Part shown: positions 1,456-52,529 of the stretch, piece by piece | Position numbering within the stretch: position 1 is the stretch's first letter | Layout of the letters: every line of letters starts with the position of its first letter | Source: Ostreococcus lucimarinus | Taxonomy: Eukaryota | Assembly (NCBI GenBank): GCA_000092065.1 | Contig: CP000590.1 | Strand: one strand, 5' to 3' | Length of the DNA: 64,000 nt | Position numbers and translations under genes: made by a program | Notes under the pieces: generated by a model | Database searches by the model: none | Seen by the model: only the letters and a program-made list of their open reading frames with translations | What the model was told of the DNA's origin: nothing

Positions 1456-3078
1456 CTAAAAACATTTTTCGAGCTCGTCGTCGCCTATTTCGTCAAACGT
1501 TGGGGCGGCAAGCTCTTTGTCGTCTATCTCGTCAAAAGTCGGGGGCTTGTACAGCAACTTCAACAGTTCATGCGACTCATCCAATACATCTTTACTCAAT
1601 TTGTGCCACGCACCTCGGATACCACGGCAGTCGGGATCGTGGCATCTCTGATAGTACGCGTCCTCGCGGAAATCGATGACGAACATCACATTGTTGCTCT
1701 TGTGCGCTCGTTCGATGTTTTCGCAAAACCGATTCCCAAACAGATTGAGGATTAACACACCATACTCTGGAAACGCCTTCCACGAGCGCACGGCCGCACC
1801 GCCGTGACCGCTCCAGCGATCAAAGTCTTTGCAAACGAACGAAGCCGTGCGAGGACAAGGTCCGATTGCGTTGCCGTTGAACTCAGACGCGGTGCGCGCT
1901 AGGTGAGACCCGGTTCGATATCCTTGGAATGCTTGTCCGCGCAATACCGAAGTATGCGTGACGCCTTCGAATCGAATCACTTTGGCTTCCAAAATCAAAC
2001 ACGTCGCTGACACCAGCGATCGTTTGAAAGTTTCAAAACTTACTTCAGATTTACTCTTCCAAAATCGTCCGGTAGTCTTCAGAATCGGTTTATTCGTCTC
2101 TTCGCTGTGCTTGTTCGACAAGTAGAGGCGAAACACTCGATTTCGGGTGTACACACCAAGATCGATGAACGGCTCGGTCTTTTCGACGTCGTCTCTCTCT
2201 TTGCGTAAGAACATCGCGTCGCATCGGTCGTCCTCGCCGCGCCGCGACTCTACGGTGTGCCAAAGTTTTCTGACAAAGTGCGCACAATGCGAATTGTCGG
2301 CAAAGACTTGATCATCAGGAAGTTGTATGATCAAGTGACGACTGAACTTGGTCTCGCTTTCGCTATCGAGCTCGACGATGTGCTCCAGCTCATCAAACTT
2401 GGACGTGTCTATCTCCGGCGTCGCCTTCAGCTCCTCTACGATGAGCTGAACCAACCAATCCATCATTCGCACGCCGTCGACGTCTGGGTTTGAAACCTTG
2501 GAAAACTCAACGTCAAAGTACAAATGACAATGGGTATCTTCTCGCATGAGTTCGTAATAGTGGCGCTCCTTCAGACTTTCGTAATATTTCCAAAACGTGC
2601 GCAAGTCTTTCGGGCCGAGCATTCGAACCCCGACGTATTGTCGAAGCCCGCCTTTCTCTTCTAATTGGCGGCAAAAGTACATGTAGGGCTCTTGCACATC
2701 TTCCGAAAGTCTCCTTTGATCCACAGCTTCGAACAATTCTTGCTGCCTGTAACTTTTGATCCAGAATCGGTCTGGTTGCTTGCTCTCTCTTTCGTCCTCT
2801 TCTCGCACGACTCGCTTGCGCCTTTTCCTCGTGTCTTCCTCCTCTTTCTTTCGTTTCGTGTCTTCTCCGTCGTAGAAACTGCTGGGATCATACGGTCTTA
2901 TCGCGTCGAAATCTATGGATGTACGCGCTTTCGTGTTCTCGTCCTTCTTCGGAGGCGAAAGCCGTGGATCGTATATTTCTCGCATCTGCCGTCGTTCGTA
3001 AACCGTTGCGTCGCGGTCAGTCGCCGTCGCGTGTGAAATCGCACGAGTATGTAGACCAATTATGGCTCGATACGCCAT
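1456..3078 (-). CDS. PRIMPOL: Primase-polymerase PrimPol (archaeo-eukaryotic primase with a UL52-like zinc finger)
   Basis: HYYELMREDTHCHLYFDVEFSK matches the PrimPol motif I region (human ...CKLYFDLEFNK). The C-terminal CHDPDCRG...H pattern is a UL52-type zinc finger. On the minus strand a TGTAA lies about 25 nt past the stop. Confidence 0.75.
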   Translation of the reverse strand: MAYRAIIGLHTRAISHATATDRDATVYERRQMREIYDPRLSPPKKDENTKARTSIDFDAIRPYDPSSFYDGEDTKRKKEEEDTRKRRKRVVREEDERESKQPDRFWIKSYRQQELFEAVDQRRLSEDVQEPYMYFCRQLEEKGGLRQYVGVRMLGPKDLRTFWKYYESLKERHYYELMREDTHCHLYFDVEFSKVSNPDVDGVRMMDWLVQLIVEELKATPEIDTSKFDELEHIVELDSESETKFSRHLIIQLPDDQVFADNSHCAHFVRKLWHTVESRRGEDDRCDAMFLRKERDDVEKTEPFIDLGVYTRNRVFRLYLSNKHSEETNKPILKTTGRFWKSKSEVSFETFKRSLVSATCLILEAKVIRFEGVTHTSVLRGQAFQGYRTGSHLARTASEFNGNAIGPCPRTASFVCKDFDRWSGHGGAAVRSWKAFPEYGVLILNLFGNRFCENIERAHKSNNVMFVIDFREDAYYQRCHDPDCRGIRGAWHKLSKDVLDESHELLKLLYKPPTFDEIDDKELAAPTFDEIGDDELEKCF

Positions 3079-4045
3079 ATTTGTAGGCGTATCAAGATGG
3101 AAGGATGGCCATTGAATTTACCGAACGTAAATTATTCTCCCAAAGACGTGTGCGATGGGAAAGACTCAACAGTTCGGAGAGCGAGAAAAACCGCGCAAAG
3201 ATCAGATTTTCCTCGGATTACGGTTCATAATCACAGCAAAACTCAGCTGACACGCATGAATGATTGTTGTGCATTGTTCATCATCGGAATCTCTCTCTCT
3301 CGCGCGTCGCATTCAAGAAAAACCGTCCACCGGTGAGCCGGAAAACGCCGTCGACGCGTCAGACAAGGCTGAATGTTAATCCACAGGAGTGTTCAGACAC
3401 AAACGTATACGTCGTATGGTATATCGTCATCAGCCGCGTCGACATCACGTTCTCCGATCGCCTCACCGCCGCCTCCCTCGCGCGCGTTCCCGGTGTCCTC
3501 CCCGTCGTCGCGTTCCGAAACGGCTCAGTCTTATGCATAATGAGTTCATCGAACAATGGCCACAAAGTCTCGTACAAGAGGTGTCAGAATGTGGTGATCA
3601 TCATCGCCGTTTCGCAATCGCACGCCGTGGTCGCATTTCCTCGCGCGTCGCCCCCTCGCGCGTCCCGAGCGACCGTCCAGACGCCGCGCGAACGATCATT
3701 CACCGATGCAAACCCATCGCCCGCGCGCATCTTCACCGCGCTCGCGCTCTCGTTCGCGCGCGTTCGAGCCATCGCGCGCGCGCCTTCGCACGCACCGTTA
3801 TCGCGCGCACCGCATGGTCGCGTCGTCGTCGCGACGCGCGTCGACGCGCGTCGGAGTGGCGGTCTTCAGTCGCGGCGGCGGCACATCGCGACGACTCGAC
3901 GCGACGCGACGCGACGCGACGCGCACGACCCGCGGGACGACCGCGCGCGACCGCTCGAGATCGAGCGCGCGACGTCCGTCACCAGTCCTCACCGTCGCGA
4001 GCGCGTCGAACGCGAGCGAACGCGCGAGGCGCGAGTGGCGGCGGC

Positions 4046-5746
4046 ATGGGTGGCGGCGGCGAAGCGAAAAAGGCGAAAAAGGAAAAGCGCGCGAAGCGCG
4101 ACGGCGACGACGGCGAAAGGAAGAAGAAGGCGAAGAAGAGTAAAAAGACCGACGCGGGAGCGGGCGATGCGGACGATTCGAGCGGGCGCGAAACGCGCGA
4201 GGAGGAGGCGGTGGAGAGAATCGAAGCGCCGGTGGATGGAATACTGAGCGAGACGACGTTCGAGTCGCTCGAGTTGAGCGCGCCGACGATGAAAGGGATC
4301 GAACAGATGGGATTTAAGACGATGACCGAGGTACAAGCGCGGTGTGTGCCGCCGTTGCTGGCCGGGAAGGATGTGTTGGGGGCGGCGCGGACGGGGAGCG
4401 GAAAGACGCTGGCGTTTTTGGTGCCGAGCGTGGAGTTGTTGTACCACGCAAAGTTCATGCCGAGAAATGGGACGGGAGTGATGGTGCTGTCGCCCACGCG
4501 TGAATTGGCGCTGCAGATTTACAACGTCGCGCAACAGCTGATGGAGAAGCACTCGCAGACGCACGGATTAATCATCGGAGGCGCGAATCGACGCGCCGAA
4601 GCCGAACGCTTGATCAAGGGCGTCAACTTGCTCGTCGCCACGCCTGGACGGTTGCTGGATCACATGCAGAACACTCGTGGATTCACGTTTAGCTCGCTCA
4701 AGGTGTTTGTCATGGACGAAGCCGATCGCATGCTCGATATCGGGTTCGAGGAGGAGATGCGAACCATCGTGAAAATGTTGCCAAAGGAGCGGCAGACGAT
4801 GCTGTTTAGCGCGACGCAAACCACAAAGGTTGAAGATTTGGCGCGCTTGTCGTTGAAGAGTCCGATTTACATCGGCGTTGACGACTCGCGCGCGGTGTCC
4901 ACCGCCACGGGCGTCGAGCAAGGGTACTGCGTCGTCCCGAGCGAGCAAAGGTTTTTGCTCTTGTTTACGTTTTTGAAGAAGAACTTGAAGAAGAAAATTA
5001 TGGTTTTCTTTTCGTCGTGTAACTCGGTCAAGTATCACGCCGAATTGTTGAATTATATCGACATTCCCGTGAGCGACATTCACGGCAAGCAAAAGCAACA
5101 GCGAAGAACGACGACGTTCTTTGAGTTTTGCAAAGCCGACCGCGGCGTTTTGTTGTGCACCGACGTCGCGGCGAGAGGCTTGGACATCCCCGCGGTGGAT
5201 TGGATCATTCAGTACGATCCTCCAGACGACCCAAAGGAGTACATTCATCGCGTCGGGCGCACGGCGCGAGGGACGGACGGAAAAGGACGCGCATTGCTCT
5301 TCTTGATTCCAGAAGAGTTGTCGTTTTTAAAGTATCTCAAGTCGGCGAAGGTGCCGCTCAACGAGTACGAGTTCCCGACGAAAAAAATCGCCAACGTGCA
5401 GAGTCAGTTGGAGAAACTGGTGGAGAAAAATTATTACTTGCACACCAGCGCGCGCGACGCCTATCGAGCGTACATTCTGGCCTACAACTCGCACACGCTC
5501 AAGGATGTGTACAACGTGCACGCGCTCGACCTCAACGCCGTGGCGAGCTCGTTCGGTTTCCACAAACCTCCCAAGGTCCAACTCAACCTGGACTCCAAGG
5601 CGAGCAAAGGGCGCACGAAATCACGAGGCGACGGCGGTCCGGGAAGCGATTACCGTCGCCAGAAAGGCACCGGTCACAATTTTAGCGCGGAAAATCCATA
5701 CGGTAAAAAGGATTCGAGCGATTCGCGTCAATTCGTACGCATGTAG
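4046..5746 (+). CDS. HAS1: DEAD-box ATP-dependent RNA helicase of the HAS1/DDX18 type. The track ORF starts at 3389 but its first 219 codons are Arg-rich GC-shadow; the first plausible ATG is 4046 ([18 protein letters not shown]...)
   Basis: Q-motif region [36 protein letters not shown]; motifs [33 protein letters not shown]...RGLDIP...HRVGRTAR. The lysine-rich N-terminus is typical of Has1/DDX18. Confidence 0.9.
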
Positions 5747-6240
5747 TAGCCCGCGTATCACTAGCGATCAAAGACACCAATCACTCAGTATTCATCACTC
5801 TCGTTTTACAAACTCACTTATCCATCGGTTCCAGCACGACGGGCGTCGCGCTCCCCTCTCGCGGCCACGCCTTCATGCGCGCCTTCGTCGCGTCTTCCCA
5901 CTCCTTCGTCATCGTCGACGGCAACGGATCGCCTGCTCGCGCGCGCGCGCGCCCATCGTCAGTCCCCACCCCCTCCCGCGCGCTCGCGTCGATCGACCCT
6001 CCGCGCGCGCTCGCGCGCGTCCGTTCGCCCGTTCGTAGGGTCGCGCCTCGACCCCCCTCGATCGCGCGCGCGCGCCCGTTCGCGTCGCCCTCGCCGCGTC
6101 GCGCACCTCCGAACACTTTCGCGACGTTCACGGCGTAATACGTCACCCCCGCCGCGCCGCACAGCGCCGCCGTGGCGCTCGCCACCTGCGCGATCGACGC
6201 GCTCGTCATGGCGCGGCGTCGCGGTGTGGCGTCGCGCGCG

Positions 6241-47248: not shown

Positions 47249-48079
47249 CTATCGACCTAACCAACGCGCGAAACGCCTAAAGCGAGCGGCGAAATAATAT
47301 AATTCCTCGTACGCGAACAGCACGACCGGCAAGGTGTAATACGTCGTTCTGTACATCACCAACGCCGAGAGGGACGCAAAAAAACTGCCTTGGATTCCGG
47401 TCAAGTATTGGAAACCGTCCTTCATAAAGTCCAACGCGCTCAGCGCCCAATCACCAGCGCCTACGAGTTTTGCAAACAGCACAAAACCAATCATTCCAAA
47501 CACACTCACGCACATGCACGCCGCGTACGACGAGCAACACGCCAACACAAACATCGCCGCAAACGGGGCGCCGTAAAACCGGATGAAGAATTTCACGACT
47601 TCAAATTTGTTACTATACAGCTCCGCGAACGCCAGCTTCTTGCTGAACGTCCGTCTCCATCGCTCTCGCATCGTGCTCCCGAACGTCTCGTCCGCCCGCG
47701 ACCTGTGGCTGCGATGGAAAGTTCTAAACTCCAGCCCCGCGAGCGCGGCCAACTCTTCCACCGTCGCCGCGCCCCTCGCCGCGAGCGGGACGTCCACCTC
47801 CGCGTCGTCACCGCTCGTCGACGCCCGCGCGCTTTCCCGCTTCTCGCGCGTTCCGACGTCACCGCCTCGGTCACCGTTCCCCACCGCGCGCGTCGTCGAC
47901 GCCGCGAACGCGCGCGCATCCGCGACGCGTCGCCGCGCGTTCGGGACGCTTTGCGCCGCGACTGGAGCTCGCGCGGCGAGCGCGCCGCCGCCGCGCCACG
48001 CGCGCGCGCTCGTCGTCGCGCTCGTTTCGCGCGCGAATCGGGCGAGCGCGCGCGCGAGACGACGCGACGCGGCGGACAT
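47249..48079 (-). CDS. Hypothetical organelle-targeted polytopic membrane protein (alternative start 48145)
   Basis: Ala/Arg-rich presequence, then several hydrophobic helices (FGAPFAAMFVLACCSSYAACMCVSVFGMIGFVLFAKLVGAG...). No family recognised. Confidence 0.4.
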   Translation of the reverse strand: MSAASRRLARALARFARETSATTSARAWRGGGALAARAPVAAQSVPNARRRVADARAFAASTTRAVGNGDRGGDVGTREKRESARASTSGDDAEVDVPLAARGAATVEELAALAGLEFRTFHRSHRSRADETFGSTMRERWRRTFSKKLAFAELYSNKFEVVKFFIRFYGAPFAAMFVLACCSSYAACMCVSVFGMIGFVLFAKLVGAGDWALSALDFMKDGFQYLTGIQGSFFASLSALVMYRTTYYTLPVVLFAYEELYYFAARFRRFARWLGR

Positions 48080-48134
48080 CGCGCAGTGACGCGCGCCGAG
48101 CGTTACTTTATGGTACCAAAGGCGCGGAGTTGGA

Positions 48135-49136
48135 TTAAAAGTCACGCGCGCGCTTCTTCTTGCGCGCCTTCGCCTTGGCGGGATCGAAATAAACCCCCGT
48201 CGTGGTCGTCGTGGACTTTTGCGCGCCTTTGAGCATGGCGCGGACTTTGGGATTCGGGCGCTTTTGCAGGCGCTGTTGTTGAGGCAGCGCCTCGTCGAGC
48301 GCGGGGACGGAGCACGACGAGTGCGCGGCGTACTTTTTAAGCCACCACGCGCGCTGCTGCTGCGCGTCCAGGACGCCCGCGAACTCGATGTACCAAAACG
48401 TCTCGAACGGCGTCGTGCCTTTGGCGCGAATCTCGTGACCCTGACGTCCGGGCGCCCAATACCGGTACGGCTTGGCGTCGTCGGGAATGAGAAACAGCGG
48501 TTTCGCCGCGTCGCCGATGGACGGGGCGTAGTACGATTTCCTGCACACGAAATTCGGCAAAAGCAAAAGCCACGGTTTATTACTGTCGCGACAATACGAC
48601 AAAATTCGCTTGAAATGATCGCCAGAGTACGGAGGATTGGTCACCAGCACGTCGAACTCTGGCGTCGATTTCGTCGCCACCTTTTCGTAAAAGTCCTCAT
48701 TCCGATTGTACACGTTCTCGAACCCGAGGGCGTTGAGGTGGGCCACCATGGAGCCTTCGCAATAATACGGATCGTATATTCGCAGCGTCTTCTTTTCTTT
48801 CTTCATCGCTTTCGCCAGATTAAACAAAAACGGTTCCACGTCGCGGTACGCTCTAAACGGCGTCTCGCAGTGGTCCGCCTCATCCGCGTCCGCGAACGCC
48901 AGCGCCGCCTTCGTCGCCGGCGTGACGACCCCGCTCGACTTCACCGACAGGTGCGCGAGCACTCTCTCGCGCTTCGCGCGCTTCGTCGACTTCGCGCGTC
49001 GCTTCGGTTCCGCCGAGCGCTTTTCGCCCTCGCGCGCGCCGTCGCCCTCGCGCGTCGCGCCGCCCTCGCGCGACGTCGACGACGCCCCACCGCGATTGTG
49101 AGATTTCACGCGCGCGTCCTCGTCGCGCGCGGGCAT
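48135..49136 (-). CDS. NPPY-motif SAM-dependent methyltransferase (amino-MTase class: N6-adenine / N5-glutamine / m2G type); substrate unknown
   Basis: Motif I-like RIYDPYYCEGSMVAHLNALG, then FDVLVTNPPYSGDH (motif IV D/N-PP-Y) about 45 aa later. Basic NLS-like N- and C-termini. Confidence 0.55.
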   Translation of the reverse strand: MPARDEDARVKSHNRGGASSTSREGGATREGDGAREGEKRSAEPKRRAKSTKRAKRERVLAHLSVKSSGVVTPATKAALAFADADEADHCETPFRAYRDVEPFLFNLAKAMKKEKKTLRIYDPYYCEGSMVAHLNALGFENVYNRNEDFYEKVATKSTPEFDVLVTNPPYSGDHFKRILSYCRDSNKPWLLLLPNFVCRKSYYAPSIGDAAKPLFLIPDDAKPYRYWAPGRQGHEIRAKGTTPFETFWYIEFAGVLDAQQQRAWWLKKYAAHSSCSVPALDEALPQQQRLQKRPNPKVRAMLKGAQKSTTTTTGVYFDPAKAKARKKKRARDF

Positions 49137-49264
49137 GCCGCGCGCGCGCGCGACGCCGCGCGCGTCGTTTTAAAGTAAAGTCCCGAGCGCGGCCGAGCAA
49201 CCGTCGACGCACATCGCGCCGCCGCGCGCGCCGCGCGCCGTCGATTCCGCCGACGTCGCGCGCG

Positions 49265-50173
49265 ATGGTGGACTACTCAAAGTTCGATCGCATCGTCGCC
49301 GACGCGAGCGACGACGAGGACGAGGCGCGAACGCGCGCGACGCCGAACGTGACGAGACTGGATGCTGGGACGAAAATCACATTCGGAAACGGACGCGCGA
49401 CGATCGCGACGCGCGCGGACGCGGACGACGACGACGACGGCGATCGCCGGGAGCGCGACGCGGACGCGCGCGGCGCGAACGAGGGCGCGGAGGGGACGAT
49501 GAGCGAACGGGAGCTGCGCGCGGCGCTCGAGGCTCGGGACGCGGCGGCGGCGCGGGACGCGGCGCGAGCGACGCCGAGCGCGCGCGGCGACGACGTCGCC
49601 GGCGCGCGAGGCGCGAATCGGGAGACGTGTTTGACGAAGATGACGCGGAACGGTGGGGTGGTTCTGGACGCCGGGACGAAGGAGGAGCGGTATTATTGGC
49701 GGCAGGACGCGAGCGAGGCGACGCTGAGCGTCGTCGTGGCGCCCGGGACCAAGGCGAAGGACGCGCGCGTGCGCGTGACGGCGACGGAGGTGGAGATCAG
49801 TGTGCTGAATCGCGAGACCGGGGCGAGTGAGGTGGTCTTACGAGGTGAGTGGGCGCATGAGATCGACCCCGAGCCGCGCGACGAGGACGACGAGTACGCG
49901 CCGACGACGTTCGGCGACTGGGAAATCACAGATTTTGAAGGCGCGGACGCGCGTCGCGTCGTGCGCGTCACCGTGCGCAAAAAAGCTTCCCAAATGTTGA
50001 CGCACTGGTGGCGCTCGTGCATCAAAGGCGCGCCCGAGGAGGATCCCTCGACGTTTGAGGATCGAAATTCGTCTCGCGCGGAAGCCGGGCGTCGCGCGTG
50101 GGAGGAAGCGCAGGAAATGTTTCGCGAGCGCGTGAAAACCCGGGAAAAAGTCGAAATCGACGCGCACGATTAA
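49265..50173 (+). CDS. NudC-family CS-domain (p23-like) protein
   Basis: CS domain: YYWRQDASEATLSVVVAPGTKAKDARVRVTATEVEISVL...GEWAHEIDP...DWEITDF...MLTHWWRSCIKGAPE (the WW motif of NudC). Confidence 0.6.
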   Translation: MVDYSKFDRIVADASDDEDEARTRATPNVTRLDAGTKITFGNGRATIATRADADDDDDGDRRERDADARGANEGAEGTMSERELRAALEARDAAAARDAARATPSARGDDVAGARGANRETCLTKMTRNGGVVLDAGTKEERYYWRQDASEATLSVVVAPGTKAKDARVRVTATEVEISVLNRETGASEVVLRGEWAHEIDPEPRDEDDEYAPTTFGDWEITDFEGADARRVVRVTVRKKASQMLTHWWRSCIKGAPEEDPSTFEDRNSSRAEAGRRAWEEAQEMFRERVKTREKVEIDAHD

Positions 50174-51162
50174 CCGCGCGCGTCACCGTTCGATTCGTCA
50201 CCGTTCAAAATCTCATTTCTTGTTCTACAACGCTATCGTCGCGTCGCGCCGTCGCCGCGACCCGCGGCTCGCGTCCGCGCTCACTTCTTCCCCAGTTCCA
50301 CCTCGAGCCCGTTATACGGAAACGTCTTCGGCGCAAACGGCGTCGTCGACGGTTTATCCACCATCGTCGCTAATCCGTACACGCCGCCCAAGAACGCGAA
50401 CGCGCTCGCCAGGTACGTCGCCGCCCGCGCCTTCGTCACGATGCGCGCCGGCACGTCGTCCAGCGCCGGCTCCGGGTGCGCGTCTCCCGCGTCCCACGTC
50501 AACTCCGCCTCCTCGGGTATCTATCTCGCGTCATCGCGCCCCCGTCGTCGTCGTCGTCAGTCTTCGCGCGTCGCCTTCGTCGGTCGCCTTCGTCTTCGTC
50601 GTAGGGCTCCGCGATCGCCCCCGTCCGTCCCGCGTCTCCCCTCGCTCGCGCGTCGTCGTCGTCGCGCGTCGCGTCGCGCCGTCTCGCCCCCGTCGTCGTC
50701 GCGCGTCGTCGTCGCGCGCGCGTCGCGTCTCGTCGCCCTCGCGCACCTCCCGCACCGGCGCGCGCGTCGGTTCGATCGCCGGTCCCACGCCCGCGCGAGC
50801 GCGCGCGCTCGTCGCGACGCCGCGCGTCTTCGCGCCCGCGCGCGCGAGCCGCGTCGCGAGCTCGATCGCGCGTCCGCGCGGCATGCGTCGTCGCGCGTCG
50901 TCGTGTGGCGTCGAGACGACCGACGCCGCGGATTCGCGCGACGCGACACGTCGACGCTCGACGCGACGCGACGCGACGCGACGCGCGACGCGGGACGCGC
51001 GTCGATCGCGCGCGAGGCGACGTCGGACGCGCGCGTCGAGCGCCGCGCGCGTCGCGATCGAGCGCGCGCGCGCGGCTCGCGAGATTCGAACGCGCGAGAT
51101 TCGATCGCGTCGGTTCGGCACCGCGCGACGCGCGCGGCGACGCGCGACGAGCGGCGCGGCGA

Positions 51163-51186
51163 GGGACGTCGGGACGTCGGGACGTC
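51163..51186. promoter_or_regulatory. (GGGACGTC)x3 tandem C-box-like (GACGTC, ACGT core) elements 15-38 bp upstream of the VPS4 ATG
   Basis: gagggacgtcgggacgtcgggacgtcgacgg read directly. ACGT-core motifs are bZIP-type sites in plants; any function here is speculative. Confidence 0.3.
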
Positions 51187-51200
51187 GACGGAGGCGAACG

Positions 51201-52529
51201 ATGGAGGGCGGCGCGTCGATACGCGATAAGGCGATCGCGTTCGTGCGAGAGGCGGTGAGGGAGGACCAGGCTGGGGCGTACGAGGCGGCGTTTAAGTTGT
51301 ACTTGGTCGCGCTGGAGCACTTTGGGGTGTATTTAAAGTACGAAAAGAACCCGCGGATGGCGGAGACGGTGCGAGGGAAGTATAAGGAGTATTTGGTGCG
51401 AGCGGAGGAGCTGCAGAAGATCGTGCAGGGGCGGAAGAACGCGAAGGAGGTGAGCGGGACGGGGGCGAGCGGGGCGCAGAGAGAGAAGAGCGGCGACGCG
51501 GACGGGGACGCGGAGTTGGCGAAGATGAAGGGCCAACTCGGTGGAGCGATCGTGACGGAAAAACCGAACGTGAAGTGGGATGACGTCGCGGGGTTGCAAC
51601 TCGCGAAGGAGGCGCTCAAGGAGGCGGTGGTGTTGCCGGTGAAGTTTCCGCAGTTTTTCACCGGGAAGCGCAAGGCGTGGAGCGGGTTCTTGTTGTACGG
51701 ACCCCCGGGGACGGGGAAGAGCTATCTCGCCAAAGCCGTGGCCACGGAAGCGGATTCGACGTTCTTCTCCATCTCGTCGAGCGATTTGGTGAGTAAATGG
51801 ATGGGGGAGAGCGAAAAGTTGGTTTCCCAACTGTTCAGTTTGGCGCGCGAGCAGGCGCCGTCCATCATCTTCATAGACGAGATCGACGCTTTGTGTGGCG
51901 CGAGAGGGGAAAACGGCGAGTCTGAAGCGTCTAGACGCATCAAGACGGAGATTCTAGTTCAAATGCAAGGCGTCGGTAACTCGTCTGGAAAGGTGTTAGT
52001 GCTCGCGGCGACGAACACGCCGTACGCGCTGGATCAAGCCGTGCGACGTCGGTTCGACAAGAGAATCTACATCCCACTTCCAGACGAAGCCGCGCGCGCG
52101 CATATTTTTCGCGTGCACGTCGGGGAAACCCCAAACGATCTCACGGATGAGGATTACCACGCCCTCGGCGCCGCCACGGAGGGCTTCAGCGGTTCCGACA
52201 TCGACCACGTCGTCAAGGATGTCCTGTACGAACCCGTGCGCAAGGTCCAAGAGGCGACACACTTCATCACCGTCCAGAATCCACCCAACGCCCCCTCCGA
52301 GGACGCCCCCGAGACTGAGTACTACATTCCATGCTCTCCCGGCGCCGCCGGCGCGTGGCCGTCTTCGCTCGAGGAGCTCGCTCGACTCGGCTACGCCGCT
52401 CGCGTCCTCCCGCCCCCGATCACCGCAAACGATTTCCGCAAGGTGCTCTTACGCGCGCGACCCACCGTCGCCGCCGCAGATCTCGAGCTTCACGAAAAGT
52501 TCACCCGTGAATTCGGCGAGGAGGGCTAG
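51201..52529 (+). CDS. VPS4: Vacuolar protein sorting 4 (VPS4/SKD1) AAA-ATPase. The track ORF from 50220 carries a 327-codon Arg/Ser-rich shadow extension.
   Basis: MIT domain (FVREAVREDQAGAYEAAFKLYLVALEHFGVYLKYEK); AAA Walker A GPPGTGKS, Walker B IIFIDEIDAL; C-terminal helix. Confidence 0.9.
   Translation: MEGGASIRDKAIAFVREAVREDQAGAYEAAFKLYLVALEHFGVYLKYEKNPRMAETVRGKYKEYLVRAEELQKIVQGRKNAKEVSGTGASGAQREKSGDADGDAELAKMKGQLGGAIVTEKPNVKWDDVAGLQLAKEALKEAVVLPVKFPQFFTGKRKAWSGFLLYGPPGTGKSYLAKAVATEADSTFFSISSSDLVSKWMGESEKLVSQLFSLAREQAPSIIFIDEIDALCGARGENGESEASRRIKTEILVQMQGVGNSSGKVLVLAATNTPYALDQAVRRRFDKRIYIPLPDEAARAHIFRVHVGETPNDLTDEDYHALGAATEGFSGSDIDHVVKDVLYEPVRKVQEATHFITVQNPPNAPSEDAPETEYYIPCSPGAAGAWPSSLEELARLGYAARVLPPPITANDFRKVLLRARPTVAAADLELHEKFTREFGEEG

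Follow-up and report, generated by a model that had tools for sequence, protein, structure and literature searches.

Adenine methylation in eukaryotes is at present explained almost wholly by the MT-A70 proteins (METTL3/14, METTL4 and AMT1) together with a small number of RNA-specific enzymes (METTL5, METTL16, ZCCHC4 and PCIF1). Here, we describe a gene encoding a protein with an NPPY motif, located within a stretch of 64,000 nucleotides of Ostreococcus lucimarinus DNA (contig CP000590.1, assembly GCA_000092065.1), hereafter referred to as the window. Judging from its motifs, the gene encodes an apparently active S-adenosylmethionine (SAM)-dependent amino-methyltransferase of the gamma class. 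It belongs to a very large eukaryotic family with relatives in virophages, polinton-like viruses and phages, and we tentatively read its product (the window protein) as a nuclear RNA adenine-N6 methyltransferase.

A eukaryotic clade of TaqI/EcoKI-type adenine-N6 (N6A) methyltransferases, typified by CHLREDRAFT_205675 (gi 159485216), was defined by Iyer, Zhang & Aravind (BioEssays 2016, 38:27, PMC4738411). It was reported to be broadly distributed in microbial eukaryotes, often with two paralogs and often with CCCH or KH fusions, its prokaryotic and viral cognates sometimes being located beside a C5-methyltransferase, and for a subset of its members methylation of RNA was predicted (PMC4738411). 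The window-protein family resembles this 'Group-2, third clade', as described in that paper, in fold, N-terminal helix, range in microbial eukaryotes and a C5-methyltransferase neighbour, and possibly also in its paralogs, seen in some genomes, and its CCCH fusions, which are rare here. It differs in that KH fusions were seen in 0/133 divergent family representatives and in that the relatives found here belong to virophages and phages rather than to conjugative elements. The family probably corresponds to this clade, as judged from the published description; a C. reinhardtii protein was absent among the 120 matches listed for a Chlamydomonas eustigma query.

The window protein may also be set beside two better known groups of enzymes. 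Like AMT1/MTA1 of the MT-A70 clade, which is present in O. tauri, it is a predicted nuclear adenine-N6 enzyme with a patchy distribution in unicellular eukaryotes and is absent from animals and land plants; however, MT-A70 proteins are circularly permuted beta-class enzymes with a DPPW motif, whereas the window protein is unpermuted and carries NPPY. With gamma-class DNA methyltransferases (M.TaqI, M.BseCI, MmeI and HsdM/EcoKI) it shares the motif order X-I-II/III-IV, the NPPY loop, an N-terminal helix with (D/E)-x-T-P and the lack of helices around strand 3, but, unlike them, it has neither a target-recognition domain or S subunit nor a partner endonuclease, and it is encoded by a eukaryotic nuclear gene.

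Gene, catalytic motifs and predicted fold

In the open reading frame (ORF) listing of the window, the gene occupies 48135..49136 of the minus strand and runs from an ATG to a stop codon. The coding sequence is intronless and complete (333 amino acids (aa) and a stop codon), and its product is 100% identical to XP_001420081.1 / UniProt A4S3E5 of O. lucimarinus CCE9901, annotated as 'predicted protein'; the first-pass annotation had thus been correct in assuming an alga. The orthologue of O. tauri (XP_022839748) owes its name, 'DNA methylase, N-6 adenine-specific, conserved site', to a PROSITE pattern only. Since other Ostreococcus-like genomes hold orthologues at 65–78% identity and homologues are numerous, we regard the ORF as a real gene rather than a chance ORF.

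A first-pass annotation of the window had described an NPPY amino-methyltransferase with a motif I-like segment followed by motif IV about 45 residues later. Re-translation confirmed this order (D122 and N167 are 45 residues apart) and the conserved region, of only ~230 aa, was found to contain the following elements, all on the minus strand: (i) motif X, DHCETPFRAY (residues 88–97; 48846..48875), the start of an N-terminal helix of the gamma-class (M.TaqI/EcoKI) type; (ii) motif I, IYDPYYCEGSMV (residues 120–131; 48744..48779), which contains IYDPYYCEGS and comprises strand 1 and the SAM-binding loop; (iii) the motif II/III-like VYNRNEDFY (residues 142–150; 48687..48713), i.e. the end of strand 2 and a D-F dipeptide; (iv) motif IV, FDVLVTNPPYSGDH (residues 161–174; 48615..48656), with strand 4 and the catalytic NPPY loop N167–Y170; (v) KPWLLLLPNFV (residues 187–197; 48546..48578), a family signature comparable to viral KPFxLLxP, which forms strand 5 after the helix that follows motif IV; and (vi) KPYRYWAPGR...TTPFETFWY (residues 222–249; 48390..48473), the strand 6/strand 7 hairpin that closes the Rossmann sheet. 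Motif X, which had escaped the first-pass annotation, aligns with DECYTP or DxYxTP of the viral homologues.

Family alignments showed that residues D88, H89, E91 and A96 of motif X, Y121, D122, P123, C126 and G128 of motif I, and V142, N144, D148, F149 and Y150 of motif II/III are invariant or nearly so, and that N167, P168 and P169 of motif IV are invariant. The D-F dipeptide, which is kept in the viral homologues, would be expected to touch the adenine of SAM, by analogy with M.TaqI.

Outside the catalytic core the protein is markedly basic, as the first-pass annotation had noted in calling both termini Lys/Arg-rich and similar to nuclear localisation signals (NLS). There are 19 Lys and Arg residues in positions 1–75, and 15 of them against 2 Asp and Glu in positions 285–333; KRSAEPKRRAKSTKRAKRER and KAKARKKKRARDF are among the Lys/Arg-rich segments. 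The former (residues 39–58; 48963..49022, minus strand) is NLS-like in composition and lies within residues 1–75, which the family alignments show to be of low complexity, poorly conserved and variable between lineages. The latter (residues 321–333; 48138..48176, minus strand) is likewise NLS-like, and similar basic tails are present in Mamiellales orthologues; both stretches may direct the protein to the nucleus. A further basic motif, LPQQQRLQKRPNPKVR (residues 284–299; 48240..48287, minus strand), is conserved, with P285, K292 and R299 invariant or nearly so. It has the form LPxxxRxxKRPNPKxR in the subgroup to which the window protein belongs (subgroup A, see below) and DPxRRRLRKKQR at the same position in others (group B), it is missing from the viral mini-methyltransferases, and it is a candidate for a role in nucleic-acid binding or in import.

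An AlphaFold2 model of residues 60–333, built from a 72-sequence alignment, was confident (mean predicted local distance difference test score (pLDDT) 84.6, predicted template modelling score (pTM) 0.80). It contains a helix at residues 94–110 (full-protein numbering) in the region of motif X, strands 2 and 3 joined without a helix, a strand at residues 130–135 of the truncated construct for KPWLLLLPNFV, and a eukaryote-specific loop insertion of low pLDDT in the strand 6/7 hairpin. The Rossmann core is unpermuted, with the order X-I-II/III-IV and a [DN]PP[YF] motif IV, as in M.TaqI/EcoKI-type ('group 2') enzymes; model and motif order therefore place the window protein in the unpermuted gamma (TaqI/EcoKI-like) amino-methyltransferase class, as a minimal Rossmann core without a target-recognition domain.

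Foldseek comparisons against BFVD and PDB gave superfamily-level matches only. The top rank was taken by RlmJ (an rRNA m6A2030 enzyme) with a TM-score of only 0.3–0.4, and the structural neighbours included MmeI, BseCI, TaqI and HsdM. Like METTL5/archaeal PH1948 (18S rRNA m6A1832) and RlmJ (23S rRNA m6A2030), the window protein combines a compact Rossmann core with [ND]PP[FY] and has no recognition domain; however, it shows no detectable sequence homology to them, and the TM-scores are low. METTL5 needs TRMT112, whereas no such partner is known for the window protein, and, to our knowledge, those families lack a motif X helix with DHCETP.

In the mechanism that we propose, motif X (DHCETP) would bind SAM together with motif I (YDPxxCxG) and the N/DF elements. 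Following strand 4, the NPPY loop would hydrogen-bond the exocyclic NH2 of a flipped-out base, on which Tyr170 would stack, the methylated atom being most likely adenine N6. The Rossmann core would act flanked by the Lys/Arg-rich tails and the conserved basic C-terminal motif, and the choice of substrate would probably depend on nucleic-acid shape, the tails or a partner protein.

Comparison with curated protein families

The first-pass annotation had refrained from naming a family and had proposed searches with hidden Markov models (HMMs). These searches left the protein equally unassigned: N6_Mtase, MethyltransfD12 and PrmC all failed or remained below threshold, and the best Pfam and NCBIfam matches of the window protein (12–16 bits) were all below cut-off and confined to ~35 residues around NPPY, motif IV being the sole region that reaches amino-methyltransferase profiles. 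The scores, compared with the gathering thresholds, were 13.4 vs 20.4 for N6_Mtase (PF02384), 15.6 vs 25.3 for Eco57I (PF07669) and 12.1 vs 26.4 for EcoRI_methylase (PF13651), and none of these three profiles was reached by any of 72 and any of 133 family members (E <= 0.01 or 0.001). The 72-sequence profile gave nothing above threshold against Pfam, NCBIfam and PDB, no PDB chain was matched in sequence by either the single protein or this profile, and in these searches the family had no Pfam model and no solved structure.

Several candidate assignments were rejected. MT-A70 (METTL3/METTL14/METTL4/AMT1) gave no match even at E <= 10, the window protein having the unpermuted order and NPPY, not DPPW. 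Dam/MethyltransfD12 and phage Dam (PF05869) did not match the window protein and differ in motif order, being of the alpha class with the recognition domain placed between the motifs. A gamma-class DNA methyltransferase of a restriction-modification system was discarded as well: there is no target-recognition domain or S subunit, no cognate endonuclease among the neighbours and no further Pfam domain.

A different amino group as the target, namely guanine N2 in tRNA, rRNA or small nuclear RNA (snRNA) (RsmC/RsmD/Trm11-like enzymes) or protein glutamine (HemK/PrmC/Mtq2-like enzymes), is improbable. These enzymes have in common [DN]PP[YF] and a small core without a recognition domain, and the NPPY region of the window protein weakly matched both the RsmD N2-methylguanosine (m2G) RNA methyltransferase model (TIGR00095, E 0.013) and the HemK/PrmC N5-glutamine methyltransferase model (TIGR03534, E 0.017, NPPY region only). 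The scores, however, are far under the cut-offs (15.2 vs 117.5 bits and 14.6 vs 199 bits, respectively), so that both assignments were rejected and no clear match to a protein or rRNA methyltransferase profile emerged. Moreover, the N-terminal helix with motif X (DHCETP) and the DF dipeptide are hallmarks of TaqI/EcoKI-type adenine enzymes, all significant homology is to the viral 'DNA methyltransferase' family phrog_799, and the domain fusions discussed below speak against a protein substrate.

A large family across eukaryotic supergroups

The first-pass annotation had called the gene an orphan, a description that no longer holds, as the gene belongs to a very large family that is deeply conserved across eukaryotic supergroups. 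A word-indexed search retrieved 600 homologues at E <= 1e-3, with a precomputed Pfam domain in 0/600, and in an exhaustive profile search, covering 1.84 billion representative sequences, 2665 clusters passed E <= 1e-3 and 1054 passed E <= 1e-30. At least six supergroup-level lineages are represented among the members with source names, which include green algae (Ostreococcus, Bathycoccus, Micromonas-like genomes, Tetraselmis, Pedinophyceae, Volvox, C. eustigma and C. schloesseri), haptophytes (Diacronema, Pavlovales and Prymnesium), a cryptophyte (Guillardia), stramenopiles (the brown alga Ectocarpus, Heterosigma, Epipyxis, Triparma and Hondaea), dinoflagellates (Symbiodinium, Effrenium and Gymnodinium), four choanoflagellates (Diaphanoeca, Choanoeca, Stephanoeca and Salpingoeca infusionum), one ichthyosporean (Nk52) and Acanthamoeba castellanii. 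In the literature, we found no paper that mentions the gene identifiers of family members.

Residues D122, P123, G128, D162, N167, P168 and P194 are invariant over the 133 divergent representatives, with about 30 further positions conserved in at least 90% of them, while the identity of the core between supergroups is 35–45%. Among 340 fetched family proteins, 329 have NPP[YF] (NPPY in 281 and NPPF in 48). We take this conservation to reflect an intact active site maintained by purifying selection. In a rough neighbour-joining tree, constructed without support values, the window protein falls into subgroup A, which comprises Mamiellophyceae, one Tetraselmis paralog and Pavlovales.

Several genomes contain paralogs: three were found in Tetraselmis striata, two each in C. 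eustigma and Hondaea, and at least two in Effrenium. Those of T. striata (P0050, P0362 and P0409) and C. eustigma (P0087 and P0483) are divergent, include NPPY and NPPF types, and have intact catalytic motifs. A single copy was seen in Ostreococcus, Micromonas and Bathycoccus in a non-exhaustive genome search, and only one type was seen in Mamiellophyceae, compared with two or three paralogs in some green algae.

Viral and phage relatives

A scan of IMG/VR revealed 18 contigs encoding proteins of 165–207 aa with the same series of motifs: DECYTP or DxYxTP, motif I, DF, DVxxTNPP[YF]S, KPFxLLxP and a closing hairpin. When the eukaryotic alignment was compared with that of 11 viral proteins using hhalign, a probability of 99.7% was obtained (E 1.5e-25) over 137 columns, which is essentially the whole viral protein, and the alignment continued through the strand 6/7 hairpin to viral RxDF...FxxxWF. 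The viral proteins belong to phrog_799 ('DNA methyltransferase'), which the window protein alone matches at E 4.2e-5, the profile match being significant over the whole catalytic core. We take this match to be homology, with the cellular family as a distinct, longer branch. Over their whole length, the phrog_799 proteins match the window protein's core, between motif X and the final hairpin, but the identity is only ~30–35% and the window protein is twice as long. What the cellular proteins have beyond the viral core are basic N-termini that vary, an additional loop within the last hairpin, helices at the C-terminus (two in the window protein) and the conserved basic motif (KRPNPK in the window protein).

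The best viral match to the family HMM (76 bits, vs 22–40 bits for phage proteins) is encoded by a 15-kb contig, IMGVR_UViG_3300017770_000391 (L001), whose protein has the IYDPYYC of motif I, identical to that of the window protein, and NEDFY, both common to the eukaryotic family, and shows a sub-threshold match to PF05869 (15.9 vs 28.1). L001 was recognized as a virophage because it carries a Sputnik-type major capsid protein and a V18/19 minor capsid protein. Positions 2265–6117 of this contig are occupied by three adjacent genes, for a truncated-looking C5-cytosine-methyltransferase-like protein, the mini NPPF methyltransferase and the small subunit of ribonucleotide reductase, a trio that is an unusual virophage cargo. 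The next closest contigs (L015 and L017) encode a D5-type primase-helicase, a Pox_A32 packaging ATPase and a GIY-YIG nuclease, gene content typical of virophages or polinton-like viruses. Phage relatives amount to 319 records, including Phapecoctavirus-like coliphages, Klebsiella, Campylobacter and Listeria phages, Thermus phage phiYS40 and cyanophage P-SSM2. Their annotations disagree ('DNA methyltransferase', 'tRNA (adenine-N6)-methyltransferase' or 'sugar-phosphate nucleotidyltransferase'), and no experimental characterisation of phrog_799-type viral members was found in the literature. The phage link needs profiles, because searching the phage collection by tblastn with the window protein gave no match.

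The first-pass annotation had pointed to the adenine methyltransferases of large double-stranded DNA viruses of algae. This link lacks support, because no prasinovirus-like relative was present in the IMG/VR scan; the viral kin are mini-methyltransferases of virophages, polinton-like viruses and phages. When GTDB genomes were scanned with patterns taken from the eukaryotic profile, no relative came to light in bacteria or archaea, and a scan with the viral profile (generic DVxxTNPP pattern only) found at least one marginal locus, so absence from prokaryotes is not proven by these scans. Two further systems brought up by the literature were rejected as unrelated, i.e. a phage 'DNA' methyltransferase acting on 16S rRNA (PMC10810198), which is an MT-A70 protein, and Dam-carrying retrotransposons (preprint).

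These relationships bear on the nature of the substrate. The window protein may be a domesticated viral or phage mini-methyltransferase that modifies adenine N6 (or cytosine N4) of genomic or invading DNA in the nucleus, an explanation that we consider a serious rival, although a less likely one than methylation of RNA. It could then produce a minor fraction of N6-methyladenine (6mA) in addition to that of AMT1, label viral elements that have integrated, or have single-stranded or damaged DNA as its target. The nearest relatives, in virophage/polinton-like and phage genomes, are annotated as DNA methyltransferases, L001 pairs the methyltransferase with a C5-methyltransferase-like gene, the structural neighbours include MmeI, BseCI, TaqI and HsdM, and the tails are NLS-like. 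On the other hand, the target-recognition domain is absent, and the domain fusions and known adenine methylation, considered below, add further points on both sides.

RNA or DNA as the substrate

Domains fused to family members were inspected as clues to the substrate. An N-terminal CCCH finger is present in two short complete proteins (P0200 and P0213); in total, CCCH fusions occur in 2–3 of the 133 representatives, and one weak match was found among the 72 aligned sequences. One member has a zf-met (U1-type zinc finger) fusion, and an SDE2 C-terminal (SDE2_2C)/SAP-like domain is located at the N-terminus of P0210 (Pedinophyceae sp. YPF-701, CAG9467197.1) and P0363 (metagenome). A regular expression for a recurrent N-terminal beta-module gave 5 matches only, and one for SAP motifs gave none. 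P0210 was observed to continue into a complete Fpg/Nei DNA glycosylase (Fapy_DNA_glyco, H2TH and Fpg-like_C), which could be either a genuine fusion linked to repair or the product of merging two gene models. Although rare, the fusions are alike in kind: nucleic acids are bound by all the fused domains, and a protein substrate is thereby made less probable. CCCH and zf-met would favour RNA, while SAP and the viral ancestry would favour DNA. Methylation of DNA thus gains from the SDE2 C-terminal/SAP-like domain in two members and from the gene model that runs into an Fpg/Nei glycosylase, but the latter is perhaps a merged model, and the CCCH or zf-met fusions of other members point the other way.

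Nanopore maps of 6mA in 18 protists (Romero Charria et al., Nat Genet 2025, PMC12695648) showed that in O. tauri and Micromonas pusilla 6mA occurs at ApT within linkers, immediately downstream of transcription start sites that are active, and this was attributed to AMT1. Raw 6mA levels in O. tauri were 0.763% (mAT), 0.194% (mAA), 0.053% (mAC) and 0.053% (mAG), compared with 0.015–0.05% in AMT1-less controls, and across the 18 species genomic 6mA tracked the presence of AMT1 (PMC12695648). In the gene table of that study, which covers 231 species, O. tauri is listed with AMT1 and without METTL3, METTL14 and METTL4, and Ectocarpus and Guillardia are listed without any MT-A70 gene (PMC12695648). 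Supplementary file 3 lists AMT1 of O. tauri and M. pusilla without its usual partner AMT6/7 and without METTL3/METTL14/METTL4 (PMC12695648); the prasinophyte 6mA machinery looks reduced, with no canonical mRNA m6A writer listed.

The first-pass annotation had envisaged a nuclear N6-adenine DNA or RNA methyltransferase and an assay of genomic 6mA. As this mark has already been measured in Ostreococcus, lies almost wholly at ApT and is ascribed to AMT1, there is no 'missing' DNA 6mA writer to explain and a role in genomic 6mA becomes less probable: the mAT signal fits AMT1, and mAC and mAG (0.05%) are near the AMT1-less controls (0.015–0.04%). Both Ectocarpus and Guillardia carry the window-protein family and have no MT-A70 gene, so the family does not track AMT1 and there is no strict co-occurrence of the two (6mA of these two species lies outside the published maps). 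Among the seven species of the 231-species table with a verified family member, AMT1 is present in 4/7 and METTL3 absent from 6/7; no conclusion can be drawn from these figures, because seven species are too few and METTL3 is lost too commonly among protists in general.

Taken together, we lean towards RNA, i.e. towards a nuclear adenine-N6 methyltransferase acting on structured snRNA, rRNA or mRNA. This reading is tentative, with RNA somewhat likelier than DNA. It draws on the CCCH and zf-met domains, which are typically RNA-binding, the lack of a target-recognition domain, the 35–45% core identity between supergroups, the near-restriction of O. tauri 6mA to ApT and its attribution to AMT1, the family's occurrence in MT-A70-less Ectocarpus and Guillardia, and the prediction of RNA methylation by Iyer et al. 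for a clade that fits this description. Several points weigh against it. The viral relatives are most simply read as DNA methyltransferases, with that of L001 adjoining a C5-methyltransferase-like gene, and SAP domains often bind DNA. The CCCH fusions are rare (2–3/133) and, in the rough neighbour-joining tree, lie in subgroups B/D and not in subgroup A of the window protein. The patchy, multi-paralog spread with many losses resembles that of an accessory or epigenetic enzyme more than that of a core rRNA modifier, and NPPY also occurs in HemK-type glutamine and some m2G RNA methyltransferases.

Genomic context

The methyltransferase gene has the GC content of its surroundings and is flanked on one side by a small unannotated ORF and a biotin synthase gene, and on the other by a CS-domain gene followed by Vps4. 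The same order (Vps4, a head-to-head gene of 306 aa, the methyltransferase, a small ORF and biotin synthase) is kept on chromosome 10 of O. tauri, while none of these neighbours recurs in a Micromonas-like genome, where NUDIX, DTW and SpoVS-like genes take their place.

This setting also speaks to the idea that, instead of being a working host enzyme, the protein serves as a non-catalytic or regulatory subunit, or that an integrated virophage or polinton-like element has left it behind as a decaying remnant. Its relatives do reside on mobile viral genomes, and several eukaryotes have 2–3 paralogs, which recalls the active/inactive pair METTL3/METTL14. However, all SAM-binding and catalytic motifs are intact and invariant, the orthologues are 65–78% identical, the locus lies among housekeeping genes (biotin synthase and Vps4), with local GC content and with synteny between O. 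lucimarinus and O. tauri, and the adjoining genes that were inspected included no viral hallmark gene. We therefore regard such a subunit or remnant as highly improbable.

The CS-domain (NudC/p23-like) gene (49265..50173, plus strand; 302 aa) lies head-to-head with the methyltransferase at a distance of 128 bp. The first-pass annotation had called it NudC-like, and the detected CS domain (25.2 bits vs a cut-off of 21.3) fits this name, the test having covered the CS domain itself. The divergent intergenic region (128 bp; 49137..49264) is GC-rich, almost wholly (GC)n-like, with one central AT patch, TTTTAAAGTAAAG; it is presumed to be a bidirectional promoter, and the patch may be a shared core-promoter element. 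The CS-domain gene was rejected as a functional partner because the pairing, kept in O. tauri, is absent from the Micromonas-like genome and thus not conserved outside Ostreococcus; the head-to-head arrangement probably reflects Ostreococcus-level synteny in a compact genome.

Directly downstream of the methyltransferase, ORF 47249–48145 (minus strand) could be read as 298 aa from a GTG, with no Pfam match and a hydrophobic-looking C-terminal half. The GTG start would overlap the stop codon of the methyltransferase by 11 nucleotides, and the true start is probably an internal ATG, because its counterpart in O. tauri is annotated with a length of just 164 aa. The Vps4 ORF (50220–52529, plus strand) extends over 769 aa from a TTG, with the MIT, AAA and Vps4_C domains beginning at residue 336, and the O. 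tauri orthologue has 442 aa; the long N-terminal 'extension', rich in Arg, Ser and Pro, probably corresponds to GC-rich DNA that is not translated. Numerous long antisense ORFs across this region of 63–67% GC are artefacts as well.

Significance

The gene is already present in databases and the family was probably noted computationally in 2016, so what is new here concerns function rather than existence. A broader hypothesis, which we consider unlikely at present, is that the window-protein family constitutes a second, MT-A70-independent lineage of eukaryotic adenine-N6 writers, domesticated early in the history of eukaryotes from a virophage, polinton or phage mini-methyltransferase. Its members would produce nuclear RNA m6A (in mRNA or snRNA) in lineages without METTL3/METTL14, or a minor, non-AMT1 fraction of DNA 6mA, e.g. 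on integrated viral elements. Lineages without METTL3/METTL14 in the published table include O. tauri, Micromonas, Ectocarpus, Guillardia, Acanthamoeba, Chromosphaera and Prymnesium (PMC12695648).

The question of function can be addressed directly, since the orthologue of O. tauri is single-copy as far as seen and this alga is genetically tractable by homologous recombination. Should the family be active, plankton that dominate ecologically would possess a so far unassigned enzyme for placing a methyl mark on nucleic acids, and the family would illustrate clearly how a gene of viral origin turned into a conserved gene of its hosts.

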